The position numbers and the translations under genes were made by a program. Shown piece by piece: positions 5,736 to 22,411 of a DNA stretch of 24,000 nucleotides. Under the pieces are notes generated by a model. The model searched no databases and was not told where the DNA came from. It was given only the letters and a program-made list of their open reading frames with translations. Numbering within the stretch: the first letter of the stretch is position 1; every line of letters starts with the position of its first letter. Location: NCBI RefSeq assembly GCF_039535435.1, contig NZ_BAAAXE010000013.1:747289-771288 (forward strand), read 5' to 3'. The stretch comes from Streptomyces cremeus (GTDB lineage Bacteria; Actinomycetota; Actinomycetes; Streptomycetales; Streptomycetaceae).

Positions 5736-6140
5736 GTGACCGCCGCACTCAGCGACCAGCTCAAGGCACTCCTCGACACCCCCGTCTTCATCTCCGTCGC
5801 CACCATCCAGCCCGACGGCAGCCCCCAGGTCTCACCGGTCTGGGTGAAGCGGGACGGGGACGACGTGCTGTTCTCGACGACGCTCGGCAGGCGGAAGGAG
5901 AAGAACCTGCGGCGCGACCCCCGCGTCACCGTCCTCCTCCAGCCCTTCGACGCCCCCTACTCCTACGCCGAGATCCGCGGCACCGCCGAGCTGACGACCG
6001 AGGGCGGTCAGGAGCTCATCGACGAGCTGTCCGTGAAGTACACCGGCAAGAAGTACGCCGAGTTCAACCCGACCGCCGTCGACGACACCGAGCGCGTCGT
6101 CGTCCGCGTGCGGGCCCGCAAGGTCGTCGGCAACATCTGA
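5736..6140 (+). CDS. PPOX-class (pyridoxamine 5'-phosphate oxidase fold) probable F420/FMN-dependent oxidoreductase
   Basis: GTG 5736 is preceded by GGAAGGACG (5719-5727). The 134-aa product VTAALSDQLKALLDTPVFISVATIQPDGSPQVSPVWV...RKEKNLRRDPRVTVL...YAEIRGTA has the typical split-barrel PPOX/Rv1155-like pattern. Confidence 0.75.
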   Translation: MTAALSDQLKALLDTPVFISVATIQPDGSPQVSPVWVKRDGDDVLFSTTLGRRKEKNLRRDPRVTVLLQPFDAPYSYAEIRGTAELTTEGGQELIDELSVKYTGKKYAEFNPTAVDDTERVVVRVRARKVVGNI

Positions 6141-6222
6141 CGGGCGCCCCGGCCCGTGTCCCGCCGGGCCTCCGCGCGGGGTACGGGCCCGTGGCACGGC
6201 AAACACTCAGTACCCTTGAGAG

Positions 6223-7620: not shown

Positions 7621-7643
7621 GGGCTGTCCCAGGGCTTACCGAC

Positions 7644-7669
7644 GTGCCGCCCGGGCTCCCGGGCGGCAC
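7644..7669 (+). terminator. Stem-loop downstream of cysS
   Basis: Perfect 11-bp inverted repeat GTGCCGCCCGG (7644-7654) / CCGGGCGGCAC (7659-7669) with a 4-nt loop, 24 nt after the cysS stop. No clear U-tract, which is common in Streptomyces. Confidence 0.55.
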
Positions 7670-7751
7670 ACTTCATTGACGTACACACGAACGACGCATA
7701 GACGATCTGCATCACCATGTGGATCGCCGGATCCACAGGAAACAGGTAGTC

Positions 7752-8708
7752 ATGGCCGGCAACAGCCAGCGCAGGAACCGACGCACGTCCAACAAGAAGG
7801 GCATGCAGGTCGGCAGCGGCGGACAGCGCCGCAAGGGTCTCGAGGGCAGGGGCCCGACCCCGAAGGCGGAGGACCGCAAGAAGCACAAGGCGAACCGTCT
7901 CGCCACCGCCAAGGCCAAGCACGCCCAGGCCCGCCGCCCCGCCCCGCGCCGCGGCGGCGCCAAGGGCACCTCGGAGATGGTCGTCGGCCGCAACCCGGTC
8001 TACGAGGCCCTGCGCGACGGCGTCCCCGCCATCACGCTCTACATCCAGCAGTACATCGACAACGACGAGCGGGTCCGCGAGATCCTCCAGCTCGCCGGCG
8101 AGCGCGGCAAGATCAACCTCATGGAGGCGCCGCGCGCCGAGCTGGACCGGATGACCAACGGCCTCAACCACCAGGGCGTCGTCCTCCAGGTCCCGCCGTA
8201 CGAGTACGCCCACCCGCAGGACCTGCTGGACGCGGCGTACGACAACCACGAGGAGCCCCTGGTCGTCGCGCTGGACGGCGTGACCGACCCGCGCAACCTC
8301 GGCGCGATCATCCGCTCCACCTCCGCCTTCGGCGGCCACGGCGTCGTCGTGCCCGAGCGGCGCGCGGCCGGCATGACCGCCGGGGCGTGGAAGTCCTCCG
8401 CCGGCACCGCCGCCCGCACCCCCGTCTCGCGCGTCACCAACCTGACCCGCGCGCTGGAGGAGTACAAGAAGGCCGGTGTCACGGTCGTCGGCCTCGCCGC
8501 CGACGGCGAGCACAAGGTCGAGGACCTGGAGCAGCTCGCGGGCCCGGTCTGCATCGTCATCGGCGGCGAGGGCAAGGGCCTGGGCCGCCTGGTCGGCGAG
8601 ACCTGCGACTACCGGGTGCGGATCTCGATGCCGGGCGGCGCGGAGTCGCTGAACGCCGGCGTCGCGGCCGGGATCGTCCTGTACGAGACGGCGCGTCGCC
8701 GGAAGTAG
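7752..8708 (+). CDS. rlmB: 23S rRNA (guanosine-2'-O)-methyltransferase RlmB (SpoU/TrmH family)
   Basis: ATG 7752 is preceded by AGGAAACAGG. The product has a basic N-terminal tail followed by SpoU/TrmH motifs (DPRNLGAIIRS, IVIGGEGKGL, ESLNAGVAAGIVLYE). The position after cysS is conserved in actinobacteria. Confidence 0.9.
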   Translation: MAGNSQRRNRRTSNKKGMQVGSGGQRRKGLEGRGPTPKAEDRKKHKANRLATAKAKHAQARRPAPRRGGAKGTSEMVVGRNPVYEALRDGVPAITLYIQQYIDNDERVREILQLAGERGKINLMEAPRAELDRMTNGLNHQGVVLQVPPYEYAHPQDLLDAAYDNHEEPLVVALDGVTDPRNLGAIIRSTSAFGGHGVVVPERRAAGMTAGAWKSSAGTAARTPVSRVTNLTRALEEYKKAGVTVVGLAADGEHKVEDLEQLAGPVCIVIGGEGKGLGRLVGETCDYRVRISMPGGAESLNAGVAAGIVLYETARRRK

Positions 8709-8725
8709 CGCGTCCGGTCGTGCCG

Positions 8726-8752
8726 AGGGCCCCGGATTCCGTCCGGGGCCCT
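8726..8752 (+). terminator. Stem-loop downstream of rlmB
   Basis: AGGGCCCCGGA (8726-8736) / TCCGGGGCCCT (8742-8752): 11-bp perfect stem, 5-nt loop, followed by TCTCGTCC. Confidence 0.55.
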
Positions 8753-8874
8753 TCTCGTCCACCTGTGGTGACCTGCGGCGTCGGCGGGAACGGGGCGAGA
8801 TCGTGTCAGTTTGACGGGTCTCGGACAGATCGAAGGCGTCAAGGCAGTGTCCTCAACACACTTCACTCGGTTAG

Positions 8875-10543
8875 ATGAGTGTGGACACCAGAACACCCGG
8901 GTTCGACGATCAGCCCGCACTGAGCATGGTCAAGGTGCCCTGCGACCCGGCGCAGGTCATCGTCAACCACGCCAGCTTCCGCGTGCAGCTCGCCCCGAGC
9001 CAGAGCGCGCGCCCCACCGTGGTGCGGGGTGCTCTGGACGACCGGACGGCGAGGATCCCCGCGCTCAGCGGGGCGGGAGCCCTCAGCGGGGCGGGAGCGG
9101 CCGTCGGAGCGGCGGCGGGCGCGGCGGCCGGACGCCGCCGGACGCCCGTCGTGTGGACGGGCAGGTCCGAGCCGGGCGACCCCGGCGCGGGCGGACTCCT
9201 CCAGGCCGTGCGCGACTCGACCGCGACCCGCCCCCTCGACGCGTCCGACGACCTCGACGCCGGGGCGACCCAGCTCATCCCGCGCGTCGGGCCGCCGGGG
9301 CGGCTCCCCGACGACACCATGCAGACCCCGGCCGTCGCCGGCGCGACGGGCGAGCCCCCCCCGGATGCTGCCCCGCATGCGGCAGGCCGAGGGCGCGTAC
9401 GACACGTACGAGACCGACGAGGAAGTCCCGTACGAGGACGAGGACGAGAGGCCGGACGAGCGCGCCGACGGGCGCTCGCGGCACTCCTTCTACCCCGACC
9501 GGCGGATGAACCTCGGCGTGGTGCTGCTGCCGCTGCGCGTCTTCCTCGGCTTCATCTCCATCTACGCGGGCATGGGCAAGCTCTGCGACCCCGTCTTCTT
9601 CGACGGCGGCGAGCGCGGCTCCATGGTCAAGTGGCTCAACGCGCTGCACCCGTGGCCGCTCGCCGAGCCGCTGCGCGACTTCGCGCTCCAGCACCCGGTG
9701 GGCGCGGGGCTCAGCGTGGCCTTCCTCCAGGTCATCGTGGGCGTGCTCACCGTGCTGGGGCTGTGGCAGCGGGTCGCGGCGGTCGTCGGGACGCTGCTGT
9801 CGGCGGCGCTGCTGCTGACCGTGAGCTGGAAGAGCGTCCCGGCCTACGACGCGCCGGACATCATCTACCTCGCCGCCTGGTCGCCGCTGATCATCGCGGG
9901 CGCTCCGGTCTACTCGATGGACTCCCGGCTCACGGGCGAGGCCTGGCGGACGCTGGGCCCGCGCAGCGAGGTGTGGGAGCTGCGGCGTCGGGTGCTGCGG
10001 CGCGGCTTCCTGATGGTCACGCTGGTCGTCGGCCTCACCCTGCTGGTCGGCTCGGTGCTCGGCGGAGCGGTCCGCTCGGCGGAGGTCGTCGTGCCCGGAC
10101 CCGAGGACGACCCGGCGAACCACCTGCCCGGCCGTCCGCTCCCCAAGGAGCCCGGCGTCCAGCGCACCCCCAAGACCCCGGAGCGCAAGGCGCCCAGGCC
10201 CTCGGTCTCCGCCTCGGTCAAGCCGTCGGCGAGGCCCAGCACGTCGGCCGGTCCGCGGGCCACGGCCACCGCGGGCGCGACCACGGGCCCGAGCCGGAAG
10301 CAGGGTTCCACGGGCCGCACGCCCACCCGGAACACCCCCCCGGCGGCGAGCACCGCCGGTCCGACCGCCACGGCGGGACCGTCCTCCAGCGGCGGCGGCA
10401 CCGCCTCCGGTGGCGGCAGCACCGGCGGTTCGAGCACCGGCGGGTCCTCCTCGGGCGGCTCGTCCTCGGGCGGCGGCTCCAACGGCGGCAGCTCCGGCGG
10501 CGGTTCGGGTGCGGACAAGGTGATCGGCGGACTGCTCGGGTAG
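8875..10543 (+). pseudogene. DoxX-family (DoxD-like) membrane protein, reading frame interrupted at a C8 homopolymer (9355-9362)
   Basis: Frame 1 (from ATG 8875) is protein-like with high GC3 up to the C8 run (MSVDTRTPGFDDQPALSMVKVPCDPAQVIVNHASFRVQL...). After the run, coding bias switches to frame 2 (first ATG at 9365). That frame encodes the acidic linker, the DoxX-type TM core (MNLGVVLLPLRVFLGFISIYAGMGKLCDP...) and a Ser/Gly/Thr/Pro-rich tail, ending at 10543. Removing one C fuses both parts into about 556 aa. Confidence 0.6.
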
Positions 10544-10569
10544 GCCGACAGGCGTACGCACGGCTGAAC

Positions 10570-10606
10570 GGAGGGGCCCGGCACCGCGATGGTGCCGGGC
10601 CCCTCC
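10570..10606. terminator. Bidirectional stem-loop between convergent genes
   Basis: Perfect 16-bp stem GGAGGGGCCCGGCACC (10570-10585) / GGTGCCGGGCCCCTCC (10591-10606), 5-nt loop. It lies between the stop at 10543 (+) and the stop at 10631 (-). Confidence 0.7.
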
Positions 10607-10630
10607 CGCGTGCGTGCGTACGCGGGAGCC

Positions 10631-11383
10631 TCAACCCCGCTGAGCGGCCAGCTCCTTGGCGGCCTCGGTGAGGTCCTTCGCGGTGTCGATGGCACGCCAG
10701 TAGGCGCCCTGCGGGATCGGGTAGCCGGCCAGGCTGCGGGAACGGGCCAGGCGGGGGAACGTGGTGCGCTCGTGGTCGCCGAGGTCGGGCAGCAGGGCGG
10801 TGAAGGCGGCGGAGAAGACGTACACGCCCGCGTTGATCAGGTACGGCGAGGGCGGCGACTCGATGAAGTCGGTGACGTTGCCGAAGGTGTCCGTCTCGAC
10901 GGCGCCCCACGGGATGCGCGGTCGGGCCAGGGCCAGGGTGGCGGTGGCGTCGCGCTCGGCGTGGAAGGCGGCCATGTCGCGCAGGGAGAACCGGGTCCAG
11001 ATGTCGCCGTTGGCGGCGTACCAGGGCTGTCCGGGTTCGGGGAGGTGCTGCGCCGCGTGCTTCAGGCCGCCTCCCCGGCCCAGGGGCTCCGTCTCGACCA
11101 CCGTCGTGACGCGCAGGGGGAGTTCGGGGGCCCGGTCGGCGAGCCAGTCCTGGAGGACCTCGGCGAGATGGCCGCAGGAGACGACGGCGTCAGTGACGCC
11201 CTCGGCGGCGAGCCAGGACAGCTGATGGCCGATGATCGGGGTTCCGGTGCCGGGAATCTCGACCATCGGCTTGGGGCGGTCGTCGGTGTACGGGCGCAGT
11301 CGCGAGCCCTGGCCGCCGGCCAGGACGACGGCCTGCGTCGGTGCGGCGGACGTCGCGGTGAGGGGGCTGGGGGTGGGGGTCAT
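10631..11383 (-). CDS. Sugar-phosphate nucleotidyltransferase (NDP-sugar pyrophosphorylase family)
   Basis: 250 aa. N-terminal signature AVVLAGGQGSRLRPYTDDRPKPMV (G-x-G-x-R-L...K-P), then INAGVYVF and the C-terminal pattern typical of mannose-1-P guanylyltransferase-like enzymes. No obvious SD, so the exact start is uncertain. Confidence 0.8.
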   Translation of the reverse strand: MTPTPSPLTATSAAPTQAVVLAGGQGSRLRPYTDDRPKPMVEIPGTGTPIIGHQLSWLAAEGVTDAVVSCGHLAEVLQDWLADRAPELPLRVTTVVETEPLGRGGGLKHAAQHLPEPGQPWYAANGDIWTRFSLRDMAAFHAERDATATLALARPRIPWGAVETDTFGNVTDFIESPPSPYLINAGVYVFSAAFTALLPDLGDHERTTFPRLARSRSLAGYPIPQGAYWRAIDTAKDLTEAAKELAAQRG

Positions 11384-11476
11384 GCAGGGGACGATATGCG
11401 GCGCGCGGGGCGCCGCCGGCGAGGGGCAGGACTGTCAGCTCTGTCGGTCGTGTCCGGGTCCGTGGTCTCGGGCGGG

Positions 11477-11893
11477 TCAGGGGCGGTGGTTCGCGACGCC
11501 GGAGGCGAAGGAGGTGTCGCAGACGGGCCGCGAGTACGACTGGGCGCGGGTCGGGCCGTAGTGCGTGACGGCGGCGCGGCCGAGGGCGCGGGCGATGTTC
11601 ATGCAGTGCTTGGCGAGGGACGGGCGGCGCTCGACCTCGCGCTGGAGGTGGGTGAGGGCCGTTCCGGGGTCCTTCTCCTGAAGTTCCACCAGAAGCCGGT
11701 CGCGCAGAATATCCTGCGGGGCACGGGACTTGGCCTGCTGGGAGACACCTTCGGCGGATGCGGTGAGCATCTGGGACTCGGGAGTGCCGGCGACCCACGG
11801 GACGCGGGTGACGGCCAGGGTCCCGGAGAGAACCAGGACGACGGGCAGGACGAGGGCGAGGGTTCGGCCGATACGGCGTGCTGAGTGGGTCAC
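11477..11893 (-). CDS. Hypothetical small secreted or membrane-anchored protein
   Basis: 138-aa ORF with a GTG start. The N-terminus has a basic stretch plus a hydrophobic helix (RRIGRTLALVLPVVLVLSGTLAV). Codon bias is acceptable and no motif is recognised. TACGCT lies 7 nt upstream of the GTG and there is no SD, so the mRNA may be leaderless. Confidence 0.55.
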   Translation of the reverse strand: MTHSARRIGRTLALVLPVVLVLSGTLAVTRVPWVAGTPESQMLTASAEGVSQQAKSRAPQDILRDRLLVELQEKDPGTALTHLQREVERRPSLAKHCMNIARALGRAAVTHYGPTRAQSYSRPVCDTSFASGVANHRP

Positions 11894-12120
11894 GCGAGTG
11901 AGCGTAGCGGCCGGTGACGATTTGGCGACATTCAGTCACCCTCATGGGGGATGGTTCGATGTCCTTTTTCGAATGAGGGGTTGACGTACGGGGCTCGAAA
12001 TGCCCAGTGTGCCGGGGTATTTCGAGTGGGTGGCGGCTAAACGTGGGACGGGACGCGCTTGGGGAAGCGCGTGGGCGGGGTGACGGGTCGGCGGTCCGGT
12101 GAGGCGGTGGCACACATGCG

Positions 12121-12152
12121 GAAGGGCCCCGCAGTCCGGTGCGGGGCCCTTC
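12121..12152 (-). terminator. Stem-loop downstream of msiK
   Basis: Perfect 13-bp stem GAAGGGCCCCGCA (12121-12133) / TGCGGGGCCCTTC (12140-12152), 6-nt loop, 18 nt past the msiK stop on the minus strand. A second hairpin lies at 12053-12072 (ACGCGCTT GGGG AAGCGCGT). Confidence 0.7.
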
Positions 12153-12169
12153 CGTGTGCGGTGCGGGGA

Positions 12170-13306
12170 TCAGTCGCTGAGACGCTCGCCGGTCTTGGTC
12201 GAGAAGACGTGCAGCTCGCCCGGACGCGGGACGACGTGCAGCTCGGTGCCCTTGTCCGGGACGGCGCGGCCGTTGACGCGGACGACGAGGTCCTTGTGCT
12301 CGCCGCCGACCTCGGCGGAGCCGTACACGTAACCGTCGGCGCCCAGTTCCTCGACGACGTTGACGGAGACGGCGAGGCCCGCCGGGGCGTCGCCGGAGTC
12401 CTTCGTCAGGGTCTTCGCGGCCTCGCCGCCGTGCTCGACGATGTCGAAGTGCTCGGGGCGCACGCCGACCGTGACGGTGGTGTCGCCCTTGTCGGCGGCG
12501 GCGCTGAGCGCCTCGCGGGAGACCGGGACGACGCTGTTGCCGAACTTCACGCCGCCGTCGGTGATCGGGACCTCGACCAGGTTCATGGCCGGGGAGCCGA
12601 TGAAGCCGGCGACGAAGAGGTTGGCCGGGCGGTCGTACATGTTGCGCGGCGAGTCGACCTGCTGGAGCAGGCCGTCCTTCAGCACGGCCACCCGGTCGCC
12701 CATGGTCATGGCCTCGACCTGGTCGTGCGTGACGTACACGGTGGTGATGCCCAGGCGGCGCTGGAGGCTCGCGATCTGCGTACGGGTCGAGACGCGGAGC
12801 TTGGCGTCGAGGTTCGACAGCGGCTCGTCCATGAGGAAGACCTGCGGCTCGCGCACGATGGCGCGGCCCATCGCGACACGCTGGCGCTGACCGCCGGAGA
12901 GGGCCTTCGGCTTGCGGTCGAGGTACTCGGTGAGGTCGAGGATCTTCGCGGCCTCCTCGACCTTCTTGCGGATCTCGGCCTTGTTCACGCCCGCGATCTT
13001 CAGGGCGAAGCCCATGTTGTCGGCGACGGACATGTGCGGGTAGAGCGCGTAGTTCTGGAACACCATGGCGATGTCCCGGTCCTTCGGCGGCAGGTGGGTG
13101 ACGTCGCGGTCGCCGATGCGGATCGCACCGCCGTTGACGTCCTCCAGGCCCGCGAGCATGCGCAGGGAGGTGGACTTCCCGCAGCCGGACGGGCCGACGA
13201 GGACGAGGAACTCGCCGTCCTCGATCGCGATCTCGAGCTGGTCCACGGCGGGCTTGGTGGAGCCCGGGTAGATGCGGGTGGCCTTGTCGAACGTGACTGT
13301 CGCCAT
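12170..13306 (-). CDS. msiK: Multiple-sugar ABC transporter ATP-binding protein MsiK
   Basis: 378 aa. Walker A GPSGCGKST, signature LSGGQRQR, Walker B FLMDEPLSNLD, and a MalK/UgpC-type C-terminal regulatory domain. RBS GAAGGAGA lies upstream of ATG 13306. It is a stand-alone ATPase with no adjacent permeases, as described for Streptomyces msiK (SCO4240). Confidence 0.93.
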   Translation of the reverse strand: MATVTFDKATRIYPGSTKPAVDQLEIAIEDGEFLVLVGPSGCGKSTSLRMLAGLEDVNGGAIRIGDRDVTHLPPKDRDIAMVFQNYALYPHMSVADNMGFALKIAGVNKAEIRKKVEEAAKILDLTEYLDRKPKALSGGQRQRVAMGRAIVREPQVFLMDEPLSNLDAKLRVSTRTQIASLQRRLGITTVYVTHDQVEAMTMGDRVAVLKDGLLQQVDSPRNMYDRPANLFVAGFIGSPAMNLVEVPITDGGVKFGNSVVPVSREALSAAADKGDTTVTVGVRPEHFDIVEHGGEAAKTLTKDSGDAPAGLAVSVNVVEELGADGYVYGSAEVGGEHKDLVVRVNGRAVPDKGTELHVVPRPGELHVFSTKTGERLSD

Positions 13307-13359
13307 GGCGATGCGTCTCCTTCACCGGCAGGAACGTGCCGGACGATCCGTTGTAAGGG

Positions 13360-13375
13360 AGTGGTCTGGTCCAAT
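13360..13375. promoter_or_regulatory. Candidate DasR-responsive element (dre) upstream of msiK
   Basis: AGTGGTCTGGTCCAAT matches the 16-bp palindromic dre consensus (approximately A[C/G]TGGTCTAGACCA[C/G]T) at 12-13 of 16 positions. It lies 54-69 nt upstream of the msiK start. It overlaps a 7-bp stem (CTGGTCC 13366-13372 / GGACCAG 13381-13387). Confidence 0.4.
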
Positions 13376-13622
13376 TTGGCGGACCAGGGGTGACGCTACC
13401 CGGGCGAGTGGGTTCTGTCAGTAGGGAAGGGGTGGGCGATTTCGCGGCTCGTGAACTGTGGCAGAGCAACGAACTTTTGACCGGTGCCTGCTGAGGCTGG
13501 GCTTCCCGCTTCGACACCCACTGCCGACCGAACGAGATCTTGGCGGACCACGCCCTGCCGGTCTTGCACGAGCTCCACGGGCATTACGGCCGACGGCCCG
13601 TCGGTCCGGTACAGCATGTGTC

Positions 13623-15029
13623 TCAAGCGGCCAGTGGAACCTCCAGCACTTCGGAGGCGCGGATCAAGGGAGGCGGGGTCCGTCCCGGAGGCAGAGCCTC
13701 GGCCACCAGCCCGTACAGCAGCATCCCCTCCTCACGGAGGTTCCGTGCCGCGTTCACGTCCCGGTCGTGCACCGCGCCGCAACTGCCGCATGTCCATTCC
13801 CGTACGGAGAGATCCAGCCGCTCCCCCTTCAGACGGCAGGACGAGCAACGTCGTGTCGACGGGAAGTACCGGTCGACGATCACGAGCGTCCGTCCGTACC
13901 ACTCGCATTTGTAGCGGAGCTGCTTCAGCAGCTCGCCCCACGAGGCGTCGAGGATCGACTGGTTCAGCTTCGCCTTGCGTCTGCGCCCAGGACCGGTGGC
14001 CGCCCGCATCAGGTTCATGACGGCCAGGTCTTCCACCACGAGCACTTGGTTCTCGCGCACGAGGCGGGTGGTGAGCTGGTCCAGCATGTCCCTGCGGACG
14101 TCGCTGATCAGGGCGTACAGGCGGGCGATCTCCTGGCGCGCCTTCTCCCGGTTTGCCGATCCCCTCTTCTTGCGGTGCAGCTCGCGCTGGGCCTTCGCGA
14201 GCTTCCTCTCGTACTTCCGAAGCAGACGGGGGTGGTCCAGCTTCTCGCCGTCGTCCAGCGTGACGAGGGCGGCCAGACCGAGGTCGATGCCGACCGCCTT
14301 CGGGGCGTGGGTGCCCGACAGGAAGACGGGAGGCAGAGGTGCGATGTGTTCCTCGACCAGTACGGAGAGGAAGAAGCGGCCCGCGCGGTCCCGGGTCATC
14401 GTGAGCTTCACGGGCGTGGTGCCTGCGGGGAGCGGGCGGGACCAGCGGATGTCGAGGGGGGCGGTCTGCTTGGCGAGGGCGATCAGCCCGGTGCCGGGTC
14501 GCTCGGGGTCCTCGAACCAACGGAAACCGGTGCGTACGTACGTCGCGGAGTCGCGTGAGCGGCCCTTCTTCTTGTGTCGCGGGTAGTTCACCCCTCCTCT
14601 GAAGAAGCGGGTGAAGGCGTTTTCGAGGTGGCGGAGGGACTGCTGGAGGACGGTCGAGGAGACGTTCTGGAGCCAGTACGTCTCGCGGGCCTGACGCCAG
14701 CCGGTGAGGGCGCGGCAGGTCTCGGCGAAACCGACTGGGACGCGGTGGTCGCGCCAGGCATTCGACCGCAGGGTCAGGCCCTCGTTGTAGACCCAGCGGC
14801 AGGCGCCGAAGGTCTCGATGAGCTGTTCTGCCTGGTCGGAGGTCGGGTAGCAGCGATAGCGGTAGACACGCTGGTGGGTACCGGGCTCCTTGGTCCGGCG
14901 CTTCATGGGTGCGGCCGGTCGCTGGTGGTGCTTGCGCTGGTCGGGGATGCGCAGGGCCTCGCGCTTGATGCGCTTGGCTTCGGTGCCGGTGATGCGGGGC
15001 GGGAGCGGTTGCTCGGGTGCCTCGGTCAT
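13623..15029 (-). CDS. tnpB: RNA-guided endonuclease TnpB (IS200/IS605 OrfB)
   Basis: 468 aa from ATG 15029, preceded by GGGAGGAGG. The track ORF extends to 15149 and an alternative ATG lies at 14906. OrfB N-terminal signature: YRYRCYPTSDQAEQLIETFGACRWVYN. RuvC triad candidates are intact: D in AVGIDLGL, E in LVVEDL, D in VHDRDVNAARN. Zn-finger: CSSC...CGSCG. Confidence 0.9.
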   Translation of the reverse strand: MTEAPEQPLPPRITGTEAKRIKREALRIPDQRKHHQRPAAPMKRRTKEPGTHQRVYRYRCYPTSDQAEQLIETFGACRWVYNEGLTLRSNAWRDHRVPVGFAETCRALTGWRQARETYWLQNVSSTVLQQSLRHLENAFTRFFRGGVNYPRHKKKGRSRDSATYVRTGFRWFEDPERPGTGLIALAKQTAPLDIRWSRPLPAGTTPVKLTMTRDRAGRFFLSVLVEEHIAPLPPVFLSGTHAPKAVGIDLGLAALVTLDDGEKLDHPRLLRKYERKLAKAQRELHRKKRGSANREKARQEIARLYALISDVRRDMLDQLTTRLVRENQVLVVEDLAVMNLMRAATGPGRRRKAKLNQSILDASWGELLKQLRYKCEWYGRTLVIVDRYFPSTRRCSSCRLKGERLDLSVREWTCGSCGAVHDRDVNAARNLREEGMLLYGLVAEALPPGRTPPPLIRASEVLEVPLAA

Positions 15030-15143
15030 GCCTCCTCCCTCGCTTCTTCGCTTTGTCCGATTGTCGGAACAGCGATTCGGTGCGTTCAACGACGGGTGGC
15101 CGGGAGGGTTATGGGAGAGCAGGTGAGTTCGTGGATCGGCAGG

Positions 15144-15171
15144 GAGCACCCTGTGTAAAGTGAGGGTGCTC
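15144..15171. other. Subterminal hairpin, putative IS left-end structure
   Basis: Perfect 9-bp inverted repeat with a 10-nt loop (GAGCACCCT gtgtaaagtg AGGGTGCTC), 115 nt upstream of the tnpB start and 30 nt from the tRNA-Thr 5' end. Confidence 0.45.
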
Positions 15172-15200
15172 GCGCGCGTGAATTCAGTGGTGCGAGCAGC

Positions 15201-15276
15201 GCCGCCTTAGCTCAGTTGGCAGAGTCTCCCACTTGTAATGGGATGGTCGTCGGTTCGATTCCGACAGGCGGCTCCA
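15201..15276 (+). tRNA. tRNA-Thr (anticodon UGU), genomically encoded CCA
   Basis: Manual cloverleaf. Acceptor GCCGCCT/AGGCGGC. D-arm GCTC-AGTTGGCA-GAGT. Anticodon arm TCCCA-CTTGTAA-TGGGA (TGT at positions 34-36). Variable loop TGGTC. T-arm GTCGG-TTCGATT-CCGAC. Discriminator T plus CCA. 76 nt in total. Confidence 0.93.
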
Positions 15277-15285
15277 CGAAACACC

Positions 15286-15322
15286 TGTCCCGGACCCCCA
15301 GGGTCCGGGACACTTGCGTTTT
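15286..15322 (+). terminator. Intrinsic terminator after tRNA-Thr
   Basis: 12-bp perfect stem TGTCCCGGACCC (15286-15297) / GGGTCCGGGACA (15301-15312), followed by CTTGCGTTTTC (T-tract 15319-15322). Confidence 0.75.
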
Positions 15323-15381
15323 CAGGACGGTACGGGGGTCCGGGCGGCGTTCCCTGGCCCCGTGTGGGGGAGGGCAGCGGG

Positions 15382-17466
15382 ATGAGTCGTCGGTCGAGCG
15401 GGCTGATCGGCACCTGGGCGGAGGCGCAGCGTCAGCAGCAGCGCCGGGTGGAGGCCCAGCAGCGGGCTCAGGTGCAACAGCAGCGTGCGTACGAGCGGGA
15501 GAGGGCGCGGGCGGACCGTCAGCAGCAGGCGGCGTACCGGCAGCATCGCGAGGCGGAGGCGCGGCGGCGTACGGAAGAGCTGGATGCCGAGGTGGCCCGG
15601 CTGGAGGGGTTGCTTGCTGCGGGGTGCCGGGCGGCTCCGTTCCGGGTGGGTGCGCTGGTGCGGCCGGAGGTGGTGGAGCCTTTTGCGCCCGGGCAACTGG
15701 CGGTGCCGGTGGTGATGCCGGATCCGGGGCGCTATCAGGCGCAGGGCGGCGGGTGGACTGCTGCGCGCCGGGCGCAGGCGCAGGAAGAGGCGCGGGCCAG
15801 GTTCGAGCGGGACTGGCATGCGGCGCAGGCTGCGGAGATGCAGCGGCAGCAGCAGTTGGCGGGGTACCGGCAGCAGTACGACGCGTGGGCGGCGGCTCGG
15901 CTGGCGGAGATTCGGGGGCACAACGCCGGGATCGCGGGCATGAAGGACGCGTTGCGTGCGGGTGAGCCGGAGACGGTGGTGGAGTTCTTCTCCGCGGCGC
16001 TGTACGCGTCGGCGGCGTGGCCGGAGGACTTTCCGCGGCGGGTGTCGGGTGCGTTCGACCGGGGTGGCCGTCAACTGGTGCTGAACTGGGAGTTGCCGGG
16101 CTTCGATGTGGTTCCTGAGGTGAAGGGGGTGCGTTATGTGGCGAGTGCCGACGAGGAGCGGGAGTCGGCCCGCCCGATGACGCAGCGCAAGGCCTTGTAT
16201 CGGAGTGTGCTGGCGCAGTGTGTGTTGCTGGCGCTGCGGGACGTGTTCGTGGCGGACGAGTTCGGCACGCTGGACTCGGTGGTGCTGAACGGGTTCGTTG
16301 ACGGTCTGGATCCGGTGACGGGGCAGCCGGCGGAGGTCTTTCTCAGCACGGTGATGGTGGAGAAGGCTGCTTTCGGGGCGTTGAATCTTGAGTTCGTGGC
16401 GGCGGTGGACTGTCTGGTGGAGGGGTTGCGGGGGCAGTTGTCGGCGCGGCCGGAGCAACGGGTGGCGGTGCGGCCGGGGCGGTTGCCGGAGCAGGTGGGG
16501 TCGGGGGTGGTGTCGCACGGGGCCGGTGGGGAGCCGGATTTGCTGGAGATGGATCCGGTGGAGTTCGAGGGTTTGGTCGCCGAGTTGTTCCGGGCTCGGG
16601 GGATGCAGGCGGTGACGACGCAGCGGTCGAATGACGGCGGGGTGGATGTGGATGCGTTGGATCCGGATCCGATCAGCGGTGGAAAGATCATTGTTCAGGT
16701 GAAGCGGTACCGGAACACGGTGCCGCCGAGTGCGGTGCGTGATCTGTTCGGGACGGTGCAGGGGGCGGGGGCGAACAAGGGCGTTCTGGTGACGACGTCG
16801 GGGTTCGGGCCGGGGTCGTACACGTTCGCCCAGGGAAAGCCGTTGACGTTGGTGTCGGGGACGGAACTGGTGGATCTGCTGCATCGGTGCGGGTTGCGCG
16901 GTGCGCTGGGAGGGGGCGGGGCCGGATCGGGTGCGACGGCGCCCGTTCCGTCGCCCCGGGAGCCGGTTGACGCGGGTGGTGCGGACGATTTCAACGTGCT
17001 GGGGATGACGTGGGCGGGGCCCGTGGCGCTGGACGTCTGTGCGTTGGTGTGCACGGGCGGCCGGGTGCTGGGGGAGGAGTACTTCGTCTTCTTCAACAAT
17101 GCGCGGACACCGGACGGTGCTGTGCGCATGGTGGCGGGTGTGGCGGGTGACCGGGCCGCTGTGCGGGTGGCGTTCGACGGGTTGCCGAGGGAGGCGGATC
17201 GCCTCGTTCTGGTGGCGTCCGTGGATGTCGAGAGGAATCCGGATGCCGACTTGTCGGGTTTCACCGACGCGAGTGTGCTGCTGCGGGACCCGTCGGGTGC
17301 TGAGTTGGATCGGCTGCCCGTCGCGGACGGCAGGTCGGGTGAGACGGCTCTGGTGCTGGGGTCCTTTCGGCGCCGCAACGGGGACTGGGATTTCGTGGCC
17401 GGCGGAAGGGGCTACAGGGGCGGGCTGGGTGAGCTGATCCAGGATTACGGGGTCGAGGTCCAGTAG
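15382..17466 (+). CDS. Multidomain protein: N-terminal Gln/Arg-rich coiled coil, unassigned middle domain, Mrr-type (PD-(D/E)xK) restriction endonuclease domain, C-terminal TerD domain
   Basis: ATG 15382 is preceded by GGGGAGGG (15366-15373); 694 aa. Mrr_cat-like core at aa ~387-505 (nt ~16540-16896): EFEGLVAELFRARGM, NDGGVDVDA, IIVQVKRY, GVLVTTSGF. TerD-like region at aa ~535-694 (nt ~16984-17463): EEYFVFFNNARTPDGAV, RLVLVASV, ETALVLGSFRRRNGDWDFVAGGRGYRGGLGELIQDYGVEV. Confidence 0.85.
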   Translation: MSRRSSGLIGTWAEAQRQQQRRVEAQQRAQVQQQRAYERERARADRQQQAAYRQHREAEARRRTEELDAEVARLEGLLAAGCRAAPFRVGALVRPEVVEPFAPGQLAVPVVMPDPGRYQAQGGGWTAARRAQAQEEARARFERDWHAAQAAEMQRQQQLAGYRQQYDAWAAARLAEIRGHNAGIAGMKDALRAGEPETVVEFFSAALYASAAWPEDFPRRVSGAFDRGGRQLVLNWELPGFDVVPEVKGVRYVASADEERESARPMTQRKALYRSVLAQCVLLALRDVFVADEFGTLDSVVLNGFVDGLDPVTGQPAEVFLSTVMVEKAAFGALNLEFVAAVDCLVEGLRGQLSARPEQRVAVRPGRLPEQVGSGVVSHGAGGEPDLLEMDPVEFEGLVAELFRARGMQAVTTQRSNDGGVDVDALDPDPISGGKIIVQVKRYRNTVPPSAVRDLFGTVQGAGANKGVLVTTSGFGPGSYTFAQGKPLTLVSGTELVDLLHRCGLRGALGGGGAGSGATAPVPSPREPVDAGGADDFNVLGMTWAGPVALDVCALVCTGGRVLGEEYFVFFNNARTPDGAVRMVAGVAGDRAAVRVAFDGLPREADRLVLVASVDVERNPDADLSGFTDASVLLRDPSGAELDRLPVADGRSGETALVLGSFRRRNGDWDFVAGGRGYRGGLGELIQDYGVEVQ

Positions 17467-17479
17467 CTCGGCCACGGGT

Positions 17480-17510
17480 GGGCCCGGCGGGGTGTGGGCC
17501 CGCCGGGCCC
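17480..17510. terminator. Bidirectional stem-loop between convergent genes
   Basis: GGGCCCGGCGGG (17480-17491) / CCCGCCGGGCCC (17499-17510), 12-bp perfect stem. It lies between the stop at 17466 (+) and the stop at 17526 (-). Confidence 0.6.
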
Positions 17511-17525
17511 GGTGGCGGGCCGCGG

Positions 17526-18932
17526 TCAGCGGCCCGCGATGCGGTTGGCGAGGGTGGCGATGGGGTGGGTGGTGGCGGTGCGGGCGGTGAGTTCGCGGCG
17601 GTCGGCCTCGCGGTAGGCGGCGTACAGGGTCTGGACGCCGAGCCAGCGGAAGGGTTCGGGTTCCCACTTGCGGACCCGGTGGCCGACCCAGGGGAGGGTC
17701 GTGAGGGCGGTGGCGGTGCCCTGGCCGGAGTCCTGGAGGAGGAGGTCGCGCAGGGTGCGGGCGGCGAGGTTGGCGGTGGCGACGCCCGAGCCGACGTAGC
17801 CGCCGGCCCAGCCCAGGCCGGTCGAGCGGTCCAGGGTGACGGTGGCGCACCAGTCGCGGGGGACGCCGAGGACGCCGGACCAGGCGTGGGCGATGCCGGT
17901 GCCCGCGAGGGTGGGGAAGAAGCGGGTGAGGACCGCGCGGAGGGCGGCGACGGTCGCGGGCTGGGTGCGGCCGTCGTTGTCGGTGCGGGAGCCGAAGCGG
18001 TACGGGACGCCCCGGCCGCCGAGGGCGATGCGGTCGTCGGCGGTGCGCTGGGCGTACATGTAGGCGTGGGCCATGTCGCCGAGGTTCTCGCGGCCGTCCC
18101 AGCCGATGGTCTCCCAGAGGTGGGCGGGGACGGGATCGGTGACGATCATGGATGAGTTCATGGGGAGCCAGGAGCGCTTCTGGCCCTTGAGGTTCGGGGT
18201 GAAGCCCTCGGTGCAGCGCAGGACGTACGGGGCGCGGACCGTGCCGTAGGGGGTGCGGGCGCGCCGGGGCGCGATCTCGGTGACGGGCGTCGACTCGTGG
18301 ATGGTCACGCCGAGGGCCTCGACCGTGTCGGCGAGGCCCGTGACGAGCTTGGCCGGGTGCAGACGGGCGCCGTGCGGGGTCCAGGTGGAGCCGACGGCGC
18401 CGGCGACCTTGACGCGGGCGGCGGTGTCGCGAGCGCCGAGGAGGACCCTGTCCTTCTCCCCGAAGGCGGTCTCGGCCGCGTGGAAGGCGCGCAGGCGGGT
18501 CAACTGGGCCGGGGTGTAGGCGACTTCGAGGACGCCGCCGCGGTGGATGTCGGCGTCGATGCCTTCCGCGGCGGCGGTGTCGACGACCTCGGTGACGGTG
18601 TCGTTCATGGCGTGCTGGAGGCGGGTGGCGGCCTCGCGGCCGTGCAGTCGGGCGTAGCGGTCGCGGCCCGCGATGCCGTTGTAGAGCCAGCCGCCGTTGC
18701 GGCCGGAGGCTCCGTAACCGCAGAACGCGGCTTCGAGGACGGTGATGTCGAGGTGGGGGGCGGCCTTCTTCAGGTAGTACGCCGTCCACAGGCCCGTGTA
18801 GCCGCCGCCGACGACGCACACGTCCGCGGTCGTGTCGCCGGGGAGGGGTTCGCGGGGGCCGGGTGTGCCGTGGTCGGCGTACCAGAAGGAGATGCCTCCG
18901 TTGGTGGTGCGGGAGGTGGGGGTGCTGCGCAT
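17526..18932 (-). CDS. FAD-dependent oxidoreductase (DAO family, gamma-glutamylputrescine/amine oxidase-like)
   Basis: The track ORF reaches 19115, but its first 61 codons are Pro/Arg junk from the G-run region. ATG 18932 is preceded by AGGACGAAGG; 468 aa. Dinucleotide-binding motif DVCVVGGGYTGLWTAYYL followed by GASGRNGG. C-ending codon bias resembles the core genes. Confidence 0.85.
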   Translation of the reverse strand: MRSTPTSRTTNGGISFWYADHGTPGPREPLPGDTTADVCVVGGGYTGLWTAYYLKKAAPHLDITVLEAAFCGYGASGRNGGWLYNGIAGRDRYARLHGREAATRLQHAMNDTVTEVVDTAAAEGIDADIHRGGVLEVAYTPAQLTRLRAFHAAETAFGEKDRVLLGARDTAARVKVAGAVGSTWTPHGARLHPAKLVTGLADTVEALGVTIHESTPVTEIAPRRARTPYGTVRAPYVLRCTEGFTPNLKGQKRSWLPMNSSMIVTDPVPAHLWETIGWDGRENLGDMAHAYMYAQRTADDRIALGGRGVPYRFGSRTDNDGRTQPATVAALRAVLTRFFPTLAGTGIAHAWSGVLGVPRDWCATVTLDRSTGLGWAGGYVGSGVATANLAARTLRDLLLQDSGQGTATALTTLPWVGHRVRKWEPEPFRWLGVQTLYAAYREADRRELTARTATTHPIATLANRIAGR

Positions 18933-19113
18933 GGTGGCCTTCGTCCTGTTCGGCGGTGGTGCCGGGACGCTAACGGGAGGGGGTGGGGGGCGCAATGGGC
19001 GTCGGGGGCGCGGTCGGGGGGCGCGGCTCGACGGTGTGTCGGGGGGCGGGGGAGGGGCCGGGGTGCGGATGTGCGGGCGCGACCTTGTGGGTGGCGGGGG
19101 CGTTGGACGGGGC

Positions 19114-20292
19114 ATGAGTGAGGTTCTTTTTCTGCCGCCGCAGCTCGTGGCGGCGTCCGTGCCCGCGTCGTTCGACGGGCTGGTTCTGAGGTCGGAGAGG
19201 GTGGAGCGGATCGGTGATCACCGGTGGTCGGTGTGGGTGGGCGCCGGTCGGCTGGTGGACCGGGAGTGGGTGGGGGGCCGGCGCGGCTTCCTCGGGGCGA
19301 GCGCGGCGAACGTCGAGCTGACGGAGTTGCTGTGGCAGCGGCCGTGGGACTTCGGGGTGGTGGGGTCGGTGGTGCTGGGCGCGCACGAGGTGCGGGTGCT
19401 GCCGACGGGGCCGCGGGGCGGCGGGACCGTCCAGGTGACCGGTCCCGAAGTCCTGGACGGGGTGCAGCGGCTGGGCGTGCTGGCGCGGGCGGTCGCGGAG
19501 GGGCTGCCCGCCGGTTCGCTGGAGCGGTCGCTGCTGCGGGTGGAGCTGGTGACGGGTCCTGCCGTGGATGTCGTACGGGGGGAACTCGACGCGGAGGACC
19601 GTCGGCGCAATCCGGCCACCGCGCAGGACGAGCTGGTGCGGGATCCGAACGTGCTGCGGGTGATGCGGCAGTTCCGCGCGGACGGGGTCAGCTTCGCGGT
19701 GCGCCGGGGGGAGGTGCGGGAGCCGTACGGGGCCGGGCGGTGCGTGTCGGTCGAGGAGGCGACGTCGGCGCTGGCGTGCCTGGCGCCGGGGGCCCGGCTG
19801 GAGGTGGCGCACGCGGCGGACGGGGCCGCCGGGCGCGAGCGGCTGTGGGCGGACCGGGGCGGGGAGTCGTACCGGGCGGTGTTCAACGAGAACACGGAGG
19901 CGGTGGGGGTGCTGCGGGCGGTGGAGATCGCCCGGTGCGTGCGGGGCGTGGTGGCGCGCAAGGGGCGCGGGAAGCGTTATGGGCACGCTCATCTGTGGCG
20001 GGACGTGCCGCAGTTGGCGGTGTGGGCGGTGGGGCGGCAGTTGCCGCTGGTGGAGCTGCACCGGGAGGGGCGGGGGCCGGGCGCGGTGGACTGGGACCTG
20101 CTGGTGCGGGACCGGCTGGAGCTGCTGACGGCGGGGGTGGCGGAGGGGCTGCGGGAGGCGTACGAGGCGCTGCGGCCGACGGCGGGGGGCAGGCGGCTGC
20201 GGCACGCGGAGGTCAGGGAGCTGGGGTTCTGGGCGGAGCTGATGGAGGAGTACGGGGCTGCCGGGGACGCCGCGGCGCTGGATTCCCTGTGA
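19114..20292 (+). CDS. Hypothetical protein with ParB/Srx-like QR...DGxQR motifs (DndB/DGQHR, DUF262 or AIPR-like)
   Basis: ATG 19114; 392 aa. The upstream part of track ORF 18832.. is G-run derived. Motifs seen: LWQRPWDFGVVGSVVL, then VLDGVQRLGVLARAV (nt 19450-19494). Downstream segments (LRVELVTGP...RRNPATAQDELVRDPNVLRVMRQF; SVEEATSALACLAP...YRAVFNE) recall the layout of AIPR/DndB-type proteins. The family assignment is tentative. Confidence 0.6.
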   Translation: MSEVLFLPPQLVAASVPASFDGLVLRSERVERIGDHRWSVWVGAGRLVDREWVGGRRGFLGASAANVELTELLWQRPWDFGVVGSVVLGAHEVRVLPTGPRGGGTVQVTGPEVLDGVQRLGVLARAVAEGLPAGSLERSLLRVELVTGPAVDVVRGELDAEDRRRNPATAQDELVRDPNVLRVMRQFRADGVSFAVRRGEVREPYGAGRCVSVEEATSALACLAPGARLEVAHAADGAAGRERLWADRGGESYRAVFNENTEAVGVLRAVEIARCVRGVVARKGRGKRYGHAHLWRDVPQLAVWAVGRQLPLVELHREGRGPGAVDWDLLVRDRLELLTAGVAEGLREAYEALRPTAGGRRLRHAEVRELGFWAELMEEYGAAGDAAALDSL

Positions 20293-20935
20293 GGTCTCGG
20301 CCGTGCCCGCCGCGGTGTGTCGCGCGGTTCCTGGTGAGGGGGTAGCAGGCGAGGCCGATGAGGGCGGCGGCGAGGTGGCCGACGTCGGTGAAGGTGCGGC
20401 CGTTGACGAGGGGGAGGGCGTAGAAGGTGAGGACGGCGAAGAGGTAGGGGTACCGCCAGGGGGCCGGGATGAGGTGGGTGAGGACTGCGACGACGCCGGC
20501 CAGTGCGTAACTCACCCCCACGTCCAGGGTGTTGACGGATTCCGGCGGGGCGATGCCGTGCCTGATCGCCCAGCCGAGGACTCCTTCGCTCAGGTACGTC
20601 GCGCCGACGTGCGCGGCGAGGACGACCCCGAGCCAGCGCAGGGTGCCGAGCCGGCGTTCGGCGGGGGCGTGGAAGAGGGAGTACAGGACGGCGTACGGGA
20701 GCCAGCCGCCGCCGTCGAGCCAGAGGGCGGAGGTGATCAGGACGCGGCTGGGGTCCTGGGAGAGGTGGTGGATGTTGGTGGACCGCTGGCGGAGGAACGC
20801 GTCGGTGAAGGCGGGGTCCATGTGACGCGTGGCGACGGTGGTCAGGAGCAGGACGAGGAGCCAGAGGTGGGTGCCGGGGGCGGAGCGGAGGTGGTGGAGT
20901 GCTCTGGCGAGGGCGCTGCGGAGGGGGCGGAGCAT
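20213..20935 (-). CDS. Polytopic membrane protein, rhomboid-like fold (uncharacterised)
   Basis: ATG 20935; 240 aa with about 6 hydrophobic segments (HLWLLVLLLTTVATRH, LITSALWLDGGGWLPYAVLYSLF, WLGVVLAAHVGATYLSEGV, VGVSYALAGVVAVLTHLI, YLFAVLTFYALPLV, VGHLAAALIGLACYPL). The Pro/Arg-rich C-terminal tail overlaps the convergent gene by 80 nt. The functional call is weak. Confidence 0.6.
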   Translation of the reverse strand: MLRPLRSALARALHHLRSAPGTHLWLLVLLLTTVATRHMDPAFTDAFLRQRSTNIHHLSQDPSRVLITSALWLDGGGWLPYAVLYSLFHAPAERRLGTLRWLGVVLAAHVGATYLSEGVLGWAIRHGIAPPESVNTLDVGVSYALAGVVAVLTHLIPAPWRYPYLFAVLTFYALPLVNGRTFTDVGHLAAALIGLACYPLTRNRATHRGGHGRDLTGNPAPRRPRQPRTPPSAPPRTPAP

Positions 20936-21008
20936 GGTCCGATTGTTGCGGTATGAGCTGATTCGCTCGGGCATTCTCCGCCCGTACGGCGAGTGAGGTG
21001 GTGCGGGG

Positions 21009-21932
21009 ATGGGCGAGCGGTACGAGGTGCGGGTGCCGGCCGGGCTGGCGGCGGCGCAACTGCGGTGGAACGGGGAGGCGGGGCGGGCCTGGGTGGCCGG
21101 GCTGCCGGGGCGGGTGCGGGAGTGCCTGGCGGGGTGGGGCCTGCGGCCGGACGGCCCGGTGATGCACGGGTCGGCGGCGCTGGTGGTGCCGGTGGTGCGG
21201 GAGGGGGACGGGCTCGCGGCGGTGCTCAAGCTCCAGCTCCGGGACGAGGAGAACGCGGGGGAGGCGGCGGCGCTGCGGGCGTGGGCGGGGCTCGGGGTGG
21301 TGGAGGTGCTGGCGGCGGACGAGGCGCGGGGCGCGCTGCTGCTGGAGCGGCTGGACGAGGGCAGGCCGCTGGACGGGGTGCGGGACGCGCTGGACGGCGT
21401 ACGGGTGATCGCGGAGTCGCTGGCGCGGCTGAACGCGGTGGCCGCTCCGGCGGGGATGCGGCGGCTGGGGGACATCGCCGCCGCCGTGCTCGACGACGTG
21501 CCGAGGCTGCTTCCGGCGCTGGCGGACGGGGCGGAGCGGCGGCTGCTGGAGCGGTGCGCGGGGGCGGTGCGGGAGGTGGCGGGGGAGGCCGGGGACCGGT
21601 TGCTGCACTGGGACCTGCACGCGGAGAACGTGCTGGCGCCGAGGGCGGGTTCGGGGCGGAGCGAGCCGTGGGTGGTGATCGACCCGAAGCCGCTCGCCGG
21701 GGACCCGGGGTTCGAACTCCTCCCGGCGATCCGGAACCGGTTCGACGCGGGGGAGGTGGTGCGGCGGTTCGATGTGCTGGTGGAGGTCATGGGGCTGGAG
21801 CGGGACCGGGCGGTGGCGTGGACGCTGGGGCGGGTGCTGCAGGACTGCTTGTGGGAGCTGGCGGAGGGGGAGGTCCGGATGCCGGACGTCCATGTGGTCG
21901 TCGCGAAGGCCCTGCTTAGGGTGCGGGCATGA
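21009..21932 (+). CDS. Aminoglycoside phosphotransferase family protein, APH(6)/streptomycin 6-kinase-like
   Basis: 307 aa. RBS GTGAGGTGG lies upstream of ATG 21009. Kinase catalytic-loop motif LLHWDLHAENVL and VVIDPKPLAGDPGFE are present, with an N-terminal layout (RWNGEAGRAWV...LKL) typical of the APH(6) family. Confidence 0.8.
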   Translation: MGERYEVRVPAGLAAAQLRWNGEAGRAWVAGLPGRVRECLAGWGLRPDGPVMHGSAALVVPVVREGDGLAAVLKLQLRDEENAGEAAALRAWAGLGVVEVLAADEARGALLLERLDEGRPLDGVRDALDGVRVIAESLARLNAVAAPAGMRRLGDIAAAVLDDVPRLLPALADGAERRLLERCAGAVREVAGEAGDRLLHWDLHAENVLAPRAGSGRSEPWVVIDPKPLAGDPGFELLPAIRNRFDAGEVVRRFDVLVEVMGLERDRAVAWTLGRVLQDCLWELAEGEVRMPDVHVVVAKALLRVRA

Positions 21933-22411
21933 TTCGCGAAGCGACGGTCGGGGACGTTCCGGAGATCTACGCAATGGTGCGGGAACTGGCCGAGTACGAG
22001 AAGGCGTTGGACGAGGTCCGGGCGAGTGAGGAGCAGCTGCGGGAGGCGCTGTTCGGCGCGCGCCCGGCGGCTTTCGCGCATGTGGCGCAGGACGGGGGCG
22101 GGAAGGTCGTCGGCTTCGCCCTGTGGTTCCTGAACTTCTCGACGTGGCGGGGGGTGCACGGGATCTACCTGGAGGACCTGTACGTGCGGCCGGCGGCGCG
22201 GGGCGGCGGGTACGGGAAGGCGCTGCTCGGGGAGTTGGCGCGGGTGTGCGTGGCGCGGGGGTACGAGCGGCTGGAGTGGTCGGTGCTGAAGTGGAACCGG
22301 CCGGCGATCGACTTCTACGAGGCGGTGGGGGCGCGGCGGCAGGGGGAGTGGGATGTGTACCAGCTGACGGACGAGGCCCTGGGGAGGCTGGGCGGGGCGA
22401 CGCCCCTTTAG
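21929..22411 (+). CDS. GNAT family N-acetyltransferase (diamine/spermidine acetyltransferase-like)
   Basis: 160 aa. The start overlaps the upstream stop (ATGA 21929-21932). Motif A: LYVRPAARGGGYGKALL. The LEWSVLKWNRPAIDFYEAVGA tail is typical of SSAT-like GNATs. Confidence 0.85.
   Translation: MIREATVGDVPEIYAMVRELAEYEKALDEVRASEEQLREALFGARPAAFAHVAQDGGGKVVGFALWFLNFSTWRGVHGIYLEDLYVRPAARGGGYGKALLGELARVCVARGYERLEWSVLKWNRPAIDFYEAVGARRQGEWDVYQLTDEALGRLGGATPL

Follow-up and report, generated by a model that had tools for sequence, protein, structure and literature searches.

The 24,000-nucleotide stretch of Streptomyces cremeus DNA analysed here, referred to below as the window (contig NZ_BAAAXE010000013.1, positions 747,289 to 771,288), carries a plus-strand gene at 15382..17466 whose 694-aa product joins a nuclease domain of the Mrr type to a C-terminal TerD domain. 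Judged from its sequence, its relatives and its genomic location, this nuclease–TerD gene probably encodes a solitary Mrr-class endonuclease of the type IV restriction kind, which is exchanged through recombination at a small number of chromosomal hot spots and to which a TerD domain has been added; we would give this reading a probability of about 0.55. TerD proteins are abundant in Streptomyces and are linked to tellurite, phage and colicin resistance, although their role is still unclear. Neither the nuclease class nor the TerD fold is new, and the fusion is present in databases under a generic name, the identical protein of Streptomyces sp. NPDC088745 being annotated as 'restriction endonuclease'.

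Overall architecture and the nuclease domain

An earlier note, made from the sequence of the window alone, divided the protein into four parts, and this division is borne out by Pfam and by an AlphaFold model built from 144 aligned sequences (mean predicted local distance difference test score, pLDDT, 91.9), in which a helical hairpin, an alpha/beta domain, a Mrr_cat domain and a TerD domain follow one another. The open reading frame runs from stop to stop over 15238-17466, and translation from 15382 (MSRRSS...), the same start as in all orthologs and one with GGGAGG about 9 nt 5' of the start codon, yields the 694-aa protein, the gene coordinates including the stop codon and the product having matches in Pfam, PADLOC and PHROGs. 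When one genome per species was scanned, at least 395 Streptomyces species genomes proved to carry a confirmed relative with the same full-length architecture, and all of the 80 best loci retrieved (80/80) match the query from residue 1 to 691-694. Such full-length architecture in hundreds of genomes rules out a frameshift or missed stop as the source of a false fusion, a possibility that the earlier note had raised.

The PD-(D/E)xK core of Mrr type that had been proposed at aa ~387-505 was recovered by Pfam as Mrr_cat (PF04471) at aa 388-500 (16543..16881, plus strand; E 1.6e-31), with 109.3 bits against a cut-off of 21 and a match to profile positions 2-115 of 115, and AlphaFold places the nuclease fold at aa 392-502. 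The motif consists of S416, D418, G420 and D422, followed by Q439-V-K441-R-Y, and D...QxK is the form that the active site takes in Mrr and MspJI. Among 79 orthologs there is no variation at S416, D418, G420, D422, Q439, K441, R442 or Y443, and each of these residues is conserved to at least 90% across the 144 family members. Mean ortholog identity to the window protein is 84% in the Mrr domain, 66-69% in the hairpin, the middle domain and TerD, and 40% in the linker that precedes TerD. Structural comparison with Foldseek revealed a resemblance of the model to the modification-dependent enzymes MspJI and AspBHI (E 1e-6), with further matches to AF1548, FokI and EcoO109I within the restriction-endonuclease fold.

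The N-terminal hairpin and the middle domain

The N-terminal part (aa 9-192; 15406..15957, plus strand) comprises two long helices, aa 9-75 and 127-192, according to the AlphaFold secondary structure (block pLDDT 87-98), linked by a conserved proline-rich, non-helical stretch at aa 76-126. We read the two helices as a predicted coiled-coil hairpin in which they would pair with each other. A repeat coding for QRQQQ..AYRQ occurs in both helical arms (15520-15561 and 15850-15891), its two copies lying exactly 330 nt (110 aa) apart, and suggests that the hairpin arose by internal duplication.

The region that follows had been left unassigned at aa ~195-360, and it is now confidently modelled as an alpha/beta domain (aa 196-348, pLDDT 92.8). 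The middle domain as a whole (aa 196-385; 15967..16536, plus strand) lies inside the aa 15-500 match to a PADLOC model described below and is common to the whole family of relatives without TerD. Neither a fold search against PDB and BFVD nor a profile search against Pfam and PDB returned a match for this domain, which is presumed to be the target-recognition module.

Distribution and relatives without TerD

The best 120 database matches cover 98-100% of the query at 67-88% identity, have both Mrr_cat and TerD, and come from Streptomyces, Actinacidiphila, Streptacidiphilus and [Kitasatospora]. Together with the species count given above they show that the fusion is common, with Mrr_cat plus TerD on record, so that the remark in the earlier note that no nuclease–TerD fusion had been characterised does not translate into rarity. 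Neither a description of such a fusion nor an experiment on one was found in the searchable literature, although a 2012 survey of Ter systems may mention the fusion. Within a species the protein differs between strains by a few residues only, which shows the apparent strain-level hypervariability (many database clusters from one species) to be a clustering artefact. SCO4241, which lies beside msiK in Streptomyces coelicolor, is ruled out as the ortholog in that species as it is listed as a proteinase (PMC3897704).

When the search is widened to the 150 best clusters at 50% identity, most of them cover only query residues ~10-507 and represent proteins of 500-590 aa that consist of hairpin, middle domain and nuclease and have no TerD; the TerD tail is found in only a handful of these clusters, the named ones being from Kitasatospora. 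Proteins with such a tail are scattered over several branches of the family, among them a short form that is nearly devoid of the N-terminal part (P0131, P0141, P0150), and among the named proteins examined the tail occurs only in Streptomycetaceae. The part shared with the TerD-less relatives corresponds to the PADLOC mREase_IV model PDLC03663, a model for candidate type IV restriction enzymes, with aa 15-500 matching model positions 23-523 of 544 (E 6.3e-55). Relatives without TerD, annotated as 'restriction endonuclease', are found on small plasmids of Methylobacterium, Xanthomonas and Clostridium, where they adjoin toxin-antitoxin, recombinase, helicase and NYN genes. An origin from phage was considered and rejected, as a collection of phage genomes gave matches to the Mrr core alone.

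The linker and the TerD domain

The nuclease is followed by a flexible linker rich in Gly, Ala and Pro (aa 506-537; 16897..16992, plus strand), in which pLDDT falls below 50 at residues 512-533. Beyond it lies a TerD-fold domain (aa 538-694; 16993..17463, plus strand), for which Pfam reports TerD (PF02342) at aa 547-689 with 83.3 bits against a cut-off of 25.3 (E 1.9e-23), and phmmer gives E 1e-17 against 3ibz/2kxt. The beta-sandwich of aa 538-694 aligns over 176 columns with the TerD protein of S. coelicolor, 3ibz (177 aa), in Foldseek (E 1.7e-13, TM score 0.70); this alignment spans essentially all of 3ibz, so that the domain is complete, as had been supposed for aa ~535-694. It forms the C-terminal part of a 694-aa protein and is not found in the setting of a small stand-alone protein within a ter cluster; in the neighbourhoods that were looked at, the annotation shows no other TerD domain or ter gene up to ~10 kb away.

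The loop that binds Ca in other members of the family is degenerate. A remnant, VRMVAGVAGDRAAV, is left at aa 581-594 (17122..17163, plus strand), where VAGV-AGDRAA, with a deletion of five residues, aligns with HTGDNITGEGEGDDEQ of 3ibz. The acidic Ca-binding loop of the TerD family (GDN..GEGDGDDE type) is absent in all 79 orthologs, in each of which the former loop has one or two acidic residues and a conserved (P/G)D(R/K)AA motif. The degeneracy noticed in the window protein (VAGVAGDRAA) therefore extends to every ortholog; from these alignments the Ca site is gone and the loop region is still constrained.

These features of TerD invite a different account, in which the protein is a signal-gated nuclease of suicide or abortive infection: the Ca-blind TerD would be a genuine sensor of a ligand or partner, responding to a small molecule or to stress by switching on an otherwise silent, non-specific Mrr nuclease, and the gene would be a single-gene immune nuclease typical of Streptomycetaceae. 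The signal might be a nucleoside-like metabolite of the sort proposed for Ter systems, following the logic of the ligand-gated CRISPR ancillary nucleases Cdn1 and Can2, to which the model is weakly similar (Foldseek, E 2e-3 to 8e-2). TerD sits on a disordered linker as an add-on regulatory module might, its former Ca loop has been replaced by a conserved motif and has not simply decayed, and TerD tails recur on several branches of the family, the short form among them. The idea is also compatible with the suggestion that, in the conflict systems of multicellular bacteria, TerD is among the domains that may serve to recognise specialised derivatives of nucleotides (Kaur et al. 2020, PMC7159879). 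On the other hand no signal-making gene lies nearby, and the relatives that have no TerD evidently function with no sensor of this sort. We know of no ligand for any TerD domain apart from Ca, the very ligand whose site has been lost here. On balance we hold a gated immune nuclease of this kind to be a tentative and rather unlikely alternative.

Genomic location and probable exchange between close relatives

The earlier note regarded the gene as an acquired or accessory one at a tRNA-Thr site, and comparison with the closest relatives of the site, which were identified via the neighbouring oxidoreductase, agrees with this. In the window the gene begins 105 nt after tRNA-Thr, close to the roughly 100 nt past that gene and its terminator that had been read from the sequence. 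The tRNA-Thr gene (anticodon TGT; 15201..15276, plus strand) was called by ARAGORN and scores 66.3 bits with the Rfam tRNA model, and it is followed by an intrinsic-terminator-like hairpin at 15286..15312 (plus strand), with a 12-bp stem of which nine pairs are G-C and then the T-run CTTGCGTTTT.

Alignment by blastn with the locus L088 matches window positions 5679-13424 at 97.1% and 17526-22399 at 95.6%, with nothing aligning in between. This delimits a 4.1-kb accessory block (13425..17525) comprising a TnpB element, the tRNA-Thr allele and the nuclease–TerD gene, in place of which L088 has 210 bp that include a different tRNA-Thr allele. The site between tRNA-Thr and the oxidoreductase is likewise empty in L090, with flanks at 87%, and in L091, whose DAO protein is 81% identical and whose genome carries a nuclease–TerD gene elsewhere. 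In L089 (flanks 90%) the same position is occupied by an unrelated gene of 567 aa (9571-11274) with a weak FG-GAP_3 match, and since different cargo is carried there, the msiK/tRNA-Thr/oxidoreductase site is a cargo hot spot. There is thus presence/absence polymorphism at the tRNA gene, with three of these four loci empty and the fourth bearing other cargo.

The tRNA gene has evidently been swapped along with the block. One identical tRNA-Thr allele is present in L088 (9480-9556), L089 (11401-11477) and L090 (9472-9548), and it is unlike that of the window, which is 82% identical to the L088 allele and 93% identical to that of the more distant L007, and is similar to alleles from more distantly related species in which the nuclease gene is present. 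No integrase was found in the block (open reading frame list, Pfam) and no direct repeat of the tRNA end in 13300-17700, and a classical tRNA-integrated island is ruled out on these two grounds. Since the whole tRNA allele has been replaced, homologous recombination across the conserved flanks, by which one allele would have been exchanged for another, is the more likely route. Judging from the tRNA alleles alone, the block was most likely gained in the lineage of the window.

The remainder of the block is a TnpB-only element of the IS200/IS605 family, without TnpA, located between the msiK leader and tRNA-Thr. Its tnpB gene (13623..15149, minus strand) was identified through the Pfam families OrfB_IS605, Cas12f1-like_TNB and HTH_OrfB_IS605 and the NCBIfam model guided_TnpB (E 5.7e-94), and the element probably spans ~13425-15195, its ends being placed from the breakpoint at 13424/13425. 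A tnpB in the same place is intact in L095, a metagenomic contig that carries the nearest homolog (88% aa identity), and decayed in L007, and both loci share with the window the haplotype of tnpB, tRNA and nuclease–TerD gene.

Codon use is also atypical in the window. Third positions of the nuclease–TerD gene are 64% G, 20% C and 14% T, whereas those of msiK, the FAD oxidoreductase and cysS are 60-73% C; the deviation described in the earlier note is therefore real for this gene, but it does not extend to the family, whose mean is ordinary (C3 0.45, G3 0.44) and for which odd codon use as a general property is ruled out. The excess of G and T at third positions is confined to the clade at the msiK locus and is strongest in the window and L007. 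C-ending codons are preferred by the minus-strand genes and G-ending codons by the plus-strand nuclease gene, and plus-strand GC skew is positive throughout 11000-21000 (0.05-0.4) except around 13400-14200, where it is -0.01 to -0.05.

Genomic contexts across the genus

In a survey of 80 retrieved loci the order msiK - tRNA-Thr - gene - oxidoreductase was seen in about 16 (~16/80), with the distance from tRNA-Thr to the gene ranging from ~90 bp to 3.3 kb among species. Besides this arrangement the loci show at least five further contexts that recur, giving at least six chromosomal contexts overall; the genes nearby in these further contexts include an amidase, a ParC-like topoisomerase, citrate synthases, an acyl-CoA synthetase, a luciferase-like oxidoreductase and GAPDH. 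In a second clade the gene follows tRNA-Arg(CCT) on the same strand at a distance of 1.4-4.5 kb (L018, L019, L021, L045, L052, L053, L072), and one copy is found 0.3 Mb from a chromosome end, in the variable arm and beside a transposase. A core gene in uniform synteny, which the earlier note, if joined with the lack of any link to mobile or defence contexts, took as telling against its proposal, is ruled out by this diversity of contexts and by the empty sites in close relatives; yet the neighbours are ordinary and there are no defence islands.

Ordinary neighbours are one of several observations that would suit a lineage-specific housekeeping or stress factor in DNA processing (repair, recombination or development), tied to the many TerD paralogues of Streptomycetaceae and not immune in function. 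Its presence in so many Streptomyces species as well as in Kitasatospora, Streptacidiphilus and Actinacidiphila, the congruence of the protein tree with genomic location and the near-identical sequences within species would all be expected of such a factor. It fits less well, however, with the absence of the gene from the site in the closest relatives, with its occurrence at no fewer than six loci, of which two lie beside a tRNA gene, with the copy beside a transposase in a variable chromosome arm, with the plasmid-borne TerD-less relatives of other phyla and with the low codon adaptation of the msiK-locus clade, and we therefore consider a housekeeping role less probable still than a gated immune one. 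The gene is most likely a long-lived but exchangeable accessory gene of Streptomycetaceae.

Several other features were recorded in the course of this survey. A gene for an N-acetylmuramoyl-L-alanine amidase (Amidase_3) adjoins the nuclease gene in 11 loci, in four contexts and in differing orientations (L003 8778-9758; L004 2514-3494; cluster c7 in L009, L025, L026, L037, L042, L043, L048, L050 and L062). Within the reading frame of seven orthologs, at about +233 nt from the gene start, ARAGORN called 'tRNA-Arg/Glu/Gly' genes of 96-99 nt (at 10234-10329 in L001 and correspondingly in L009, L012, L015, L030, L049 and L083); these are probably false positives, and no comparable in-gene call was made in the window or in the Rfam scan. 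Directly upstream of msiK in the window, Rfam places the msiK RNA motif (RF01747, 55.5 bits) on the minus strand at 13310-13369, and the left breakpoint of the accessory block is ~55 nt past it. At the other end of the block, a G+C-rich hairpin at 17480..17510, read from the sequence as GGGCCCGGCGG ... CCGCCGGGCCC, separates the convergent stop codons of the nuclease–TerD gene and the FAD oxidoreductase; it has no T-run and was not called in the terminator scan. Adjoining the oxidoreductase is an open reading frame of 486 aa (18832-20292, plus strand) with high G+C at third codon positions and no Pfam or PADLOC match, and as genes of 341-401 aa without Pfam matches occupy its position in L088-L090, it appears to encode a conserved hypothetical protein.

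Proposed mode of action

In the solitary, exchangeable restriction nuclease that we favour, the N-terminal hairpin and the middle domain, which are common to the stand-alone 'restriction endonucleases' of ~500-590 aa, would form a module for targeting and oligomerisation, and DNA would be cut by the Mrr_cat domain through D418, D422, Q439 and K441. The TerD-fold domain would have been added in Streptomycetaceae behind a flexible linker of ~20-30 residues and, being without the canonical Ca site and having a replacement motif, would most likely gate or localise the nuclease via a ligand or a partner protein. It is the combination of a flexible tether with a loop that is re-modelled yet conserved that argues for Ca-independent regulation or localisation by TerD. 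The make-up of the protein, the invariant nuclease motif, the lost Ca loop, the spread of the family and the presence/absence polymorphism are observed; cleavage of DNA, dependence on modification, a role in defence and a regulatory role for TerD are what we infer for this protein. No methyltransferase lies beside the gene, the other content of the block being tnpB and the tRNA and its neighbours being msiK and the FAD oxidoreductase.

That the nuclease fold is catalytically dead and serves only in DNA binding or scaffolding, as in the NACHT-associated inactive restriction endonuclease family, is highly improbable: NA-iREase1 (PF22722) does match at aa 396-498 with 33.3 bits against a cut-off of 27, and this family is also precomputed for all orthologs, but the same stretch reaches 109 bits with Mrr_cat, the loss of catalytic residues expected of NA-iREase1 is not seen, and the wholly invariant D...D...QxK motif and the likeness to MspJI and AspBHI leave the match no argument for a dead enzyme.

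A number of observations weigh against the reading favoured here. The protein lacks any recognised domain for reading modified DNA, Pfam reporting neither Mrr_N nor SRA and the middle domain being without a fold match; experiments on any member of the family were not found in the searchable literature; and the matches in the phage collection are to the Mrr core only. The PADLOC mREase_IV models are homology-based candidates and not tested enzymes. The neighbours in the recurrent contexts are ordinary metabolic and housekeeping genes, with neither defence islands or defence genes nor mobile elements among them. Each clade of the protein tree has one genomic context, which means that the gene stays put for long within lineages, and this match of context to clade, together with the few-residue differences within species, looks like long vertical residence.

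Should the rather unlikely gated account hold, with TerD as a sensor that switches the nuclease on, this would be the first TerD coupled to an effector and would offer a direct biochemical read-out for the Ter/TerD family, and the middle domain might in that case represent a novel type of module for reading DNA. The joining of TerD to a nuclease whose active site is intact also provides an assayable output for any control of DNA cleavage by TerD or by something that it binds. Restriction barriers limit the genetic manipulation of antibiotic-producing Streptomyces, and a widespread nuclease of restriction type could be one such barrier. The msiK/tRNA-Thr/oxidoreductase site, for its part, is a clean natural example of how very close relatives exchange a gene through replacement of alleles.

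Comparison with known systems

The closest functional comparison is with the type IV enzymes Mrr, MspJI and AspBHI, with which the window protein shares a C-terminal Mrr_cat domain with D...QxK, structural similarity, a targeting part placed in front of the nuclease and a solitary gene. It differs from them in having a helical hairpin and middle domain instead of the Mrr_N winged helix or SRA-like reader, and in the extra TerD domain at its C-terminus. With the TerD-less family of PDLC03663 it has hairpin, middle domain and Mrr_cat in common, at 30-50% identity; those proteins end after the nuclease and are found in different phyla and on small plasmids, whereas the window protein adds the linker and TerD.

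The stand-alone TerD proteins of Klebsiella (2KXT) and S. coelicolor (3IBZ) have the same fold across the whole domain, but they are proteins of ~190 aa with an acidic Ca loop, while the domain described here is fused to a nuclease, has its loop deleted or substituted and has no ter genes near it in the window. Cdn1 and Can2 also combine a nuclease of restriction fold with a separate, possibly ligand-binding domain; their structural similarity to the window protein is weak, their CARF/SAVED-type sensors are unrelated to TerD and no signal-producing partner is evident here, so that the analogy with these enzymes is one of mechanism only.

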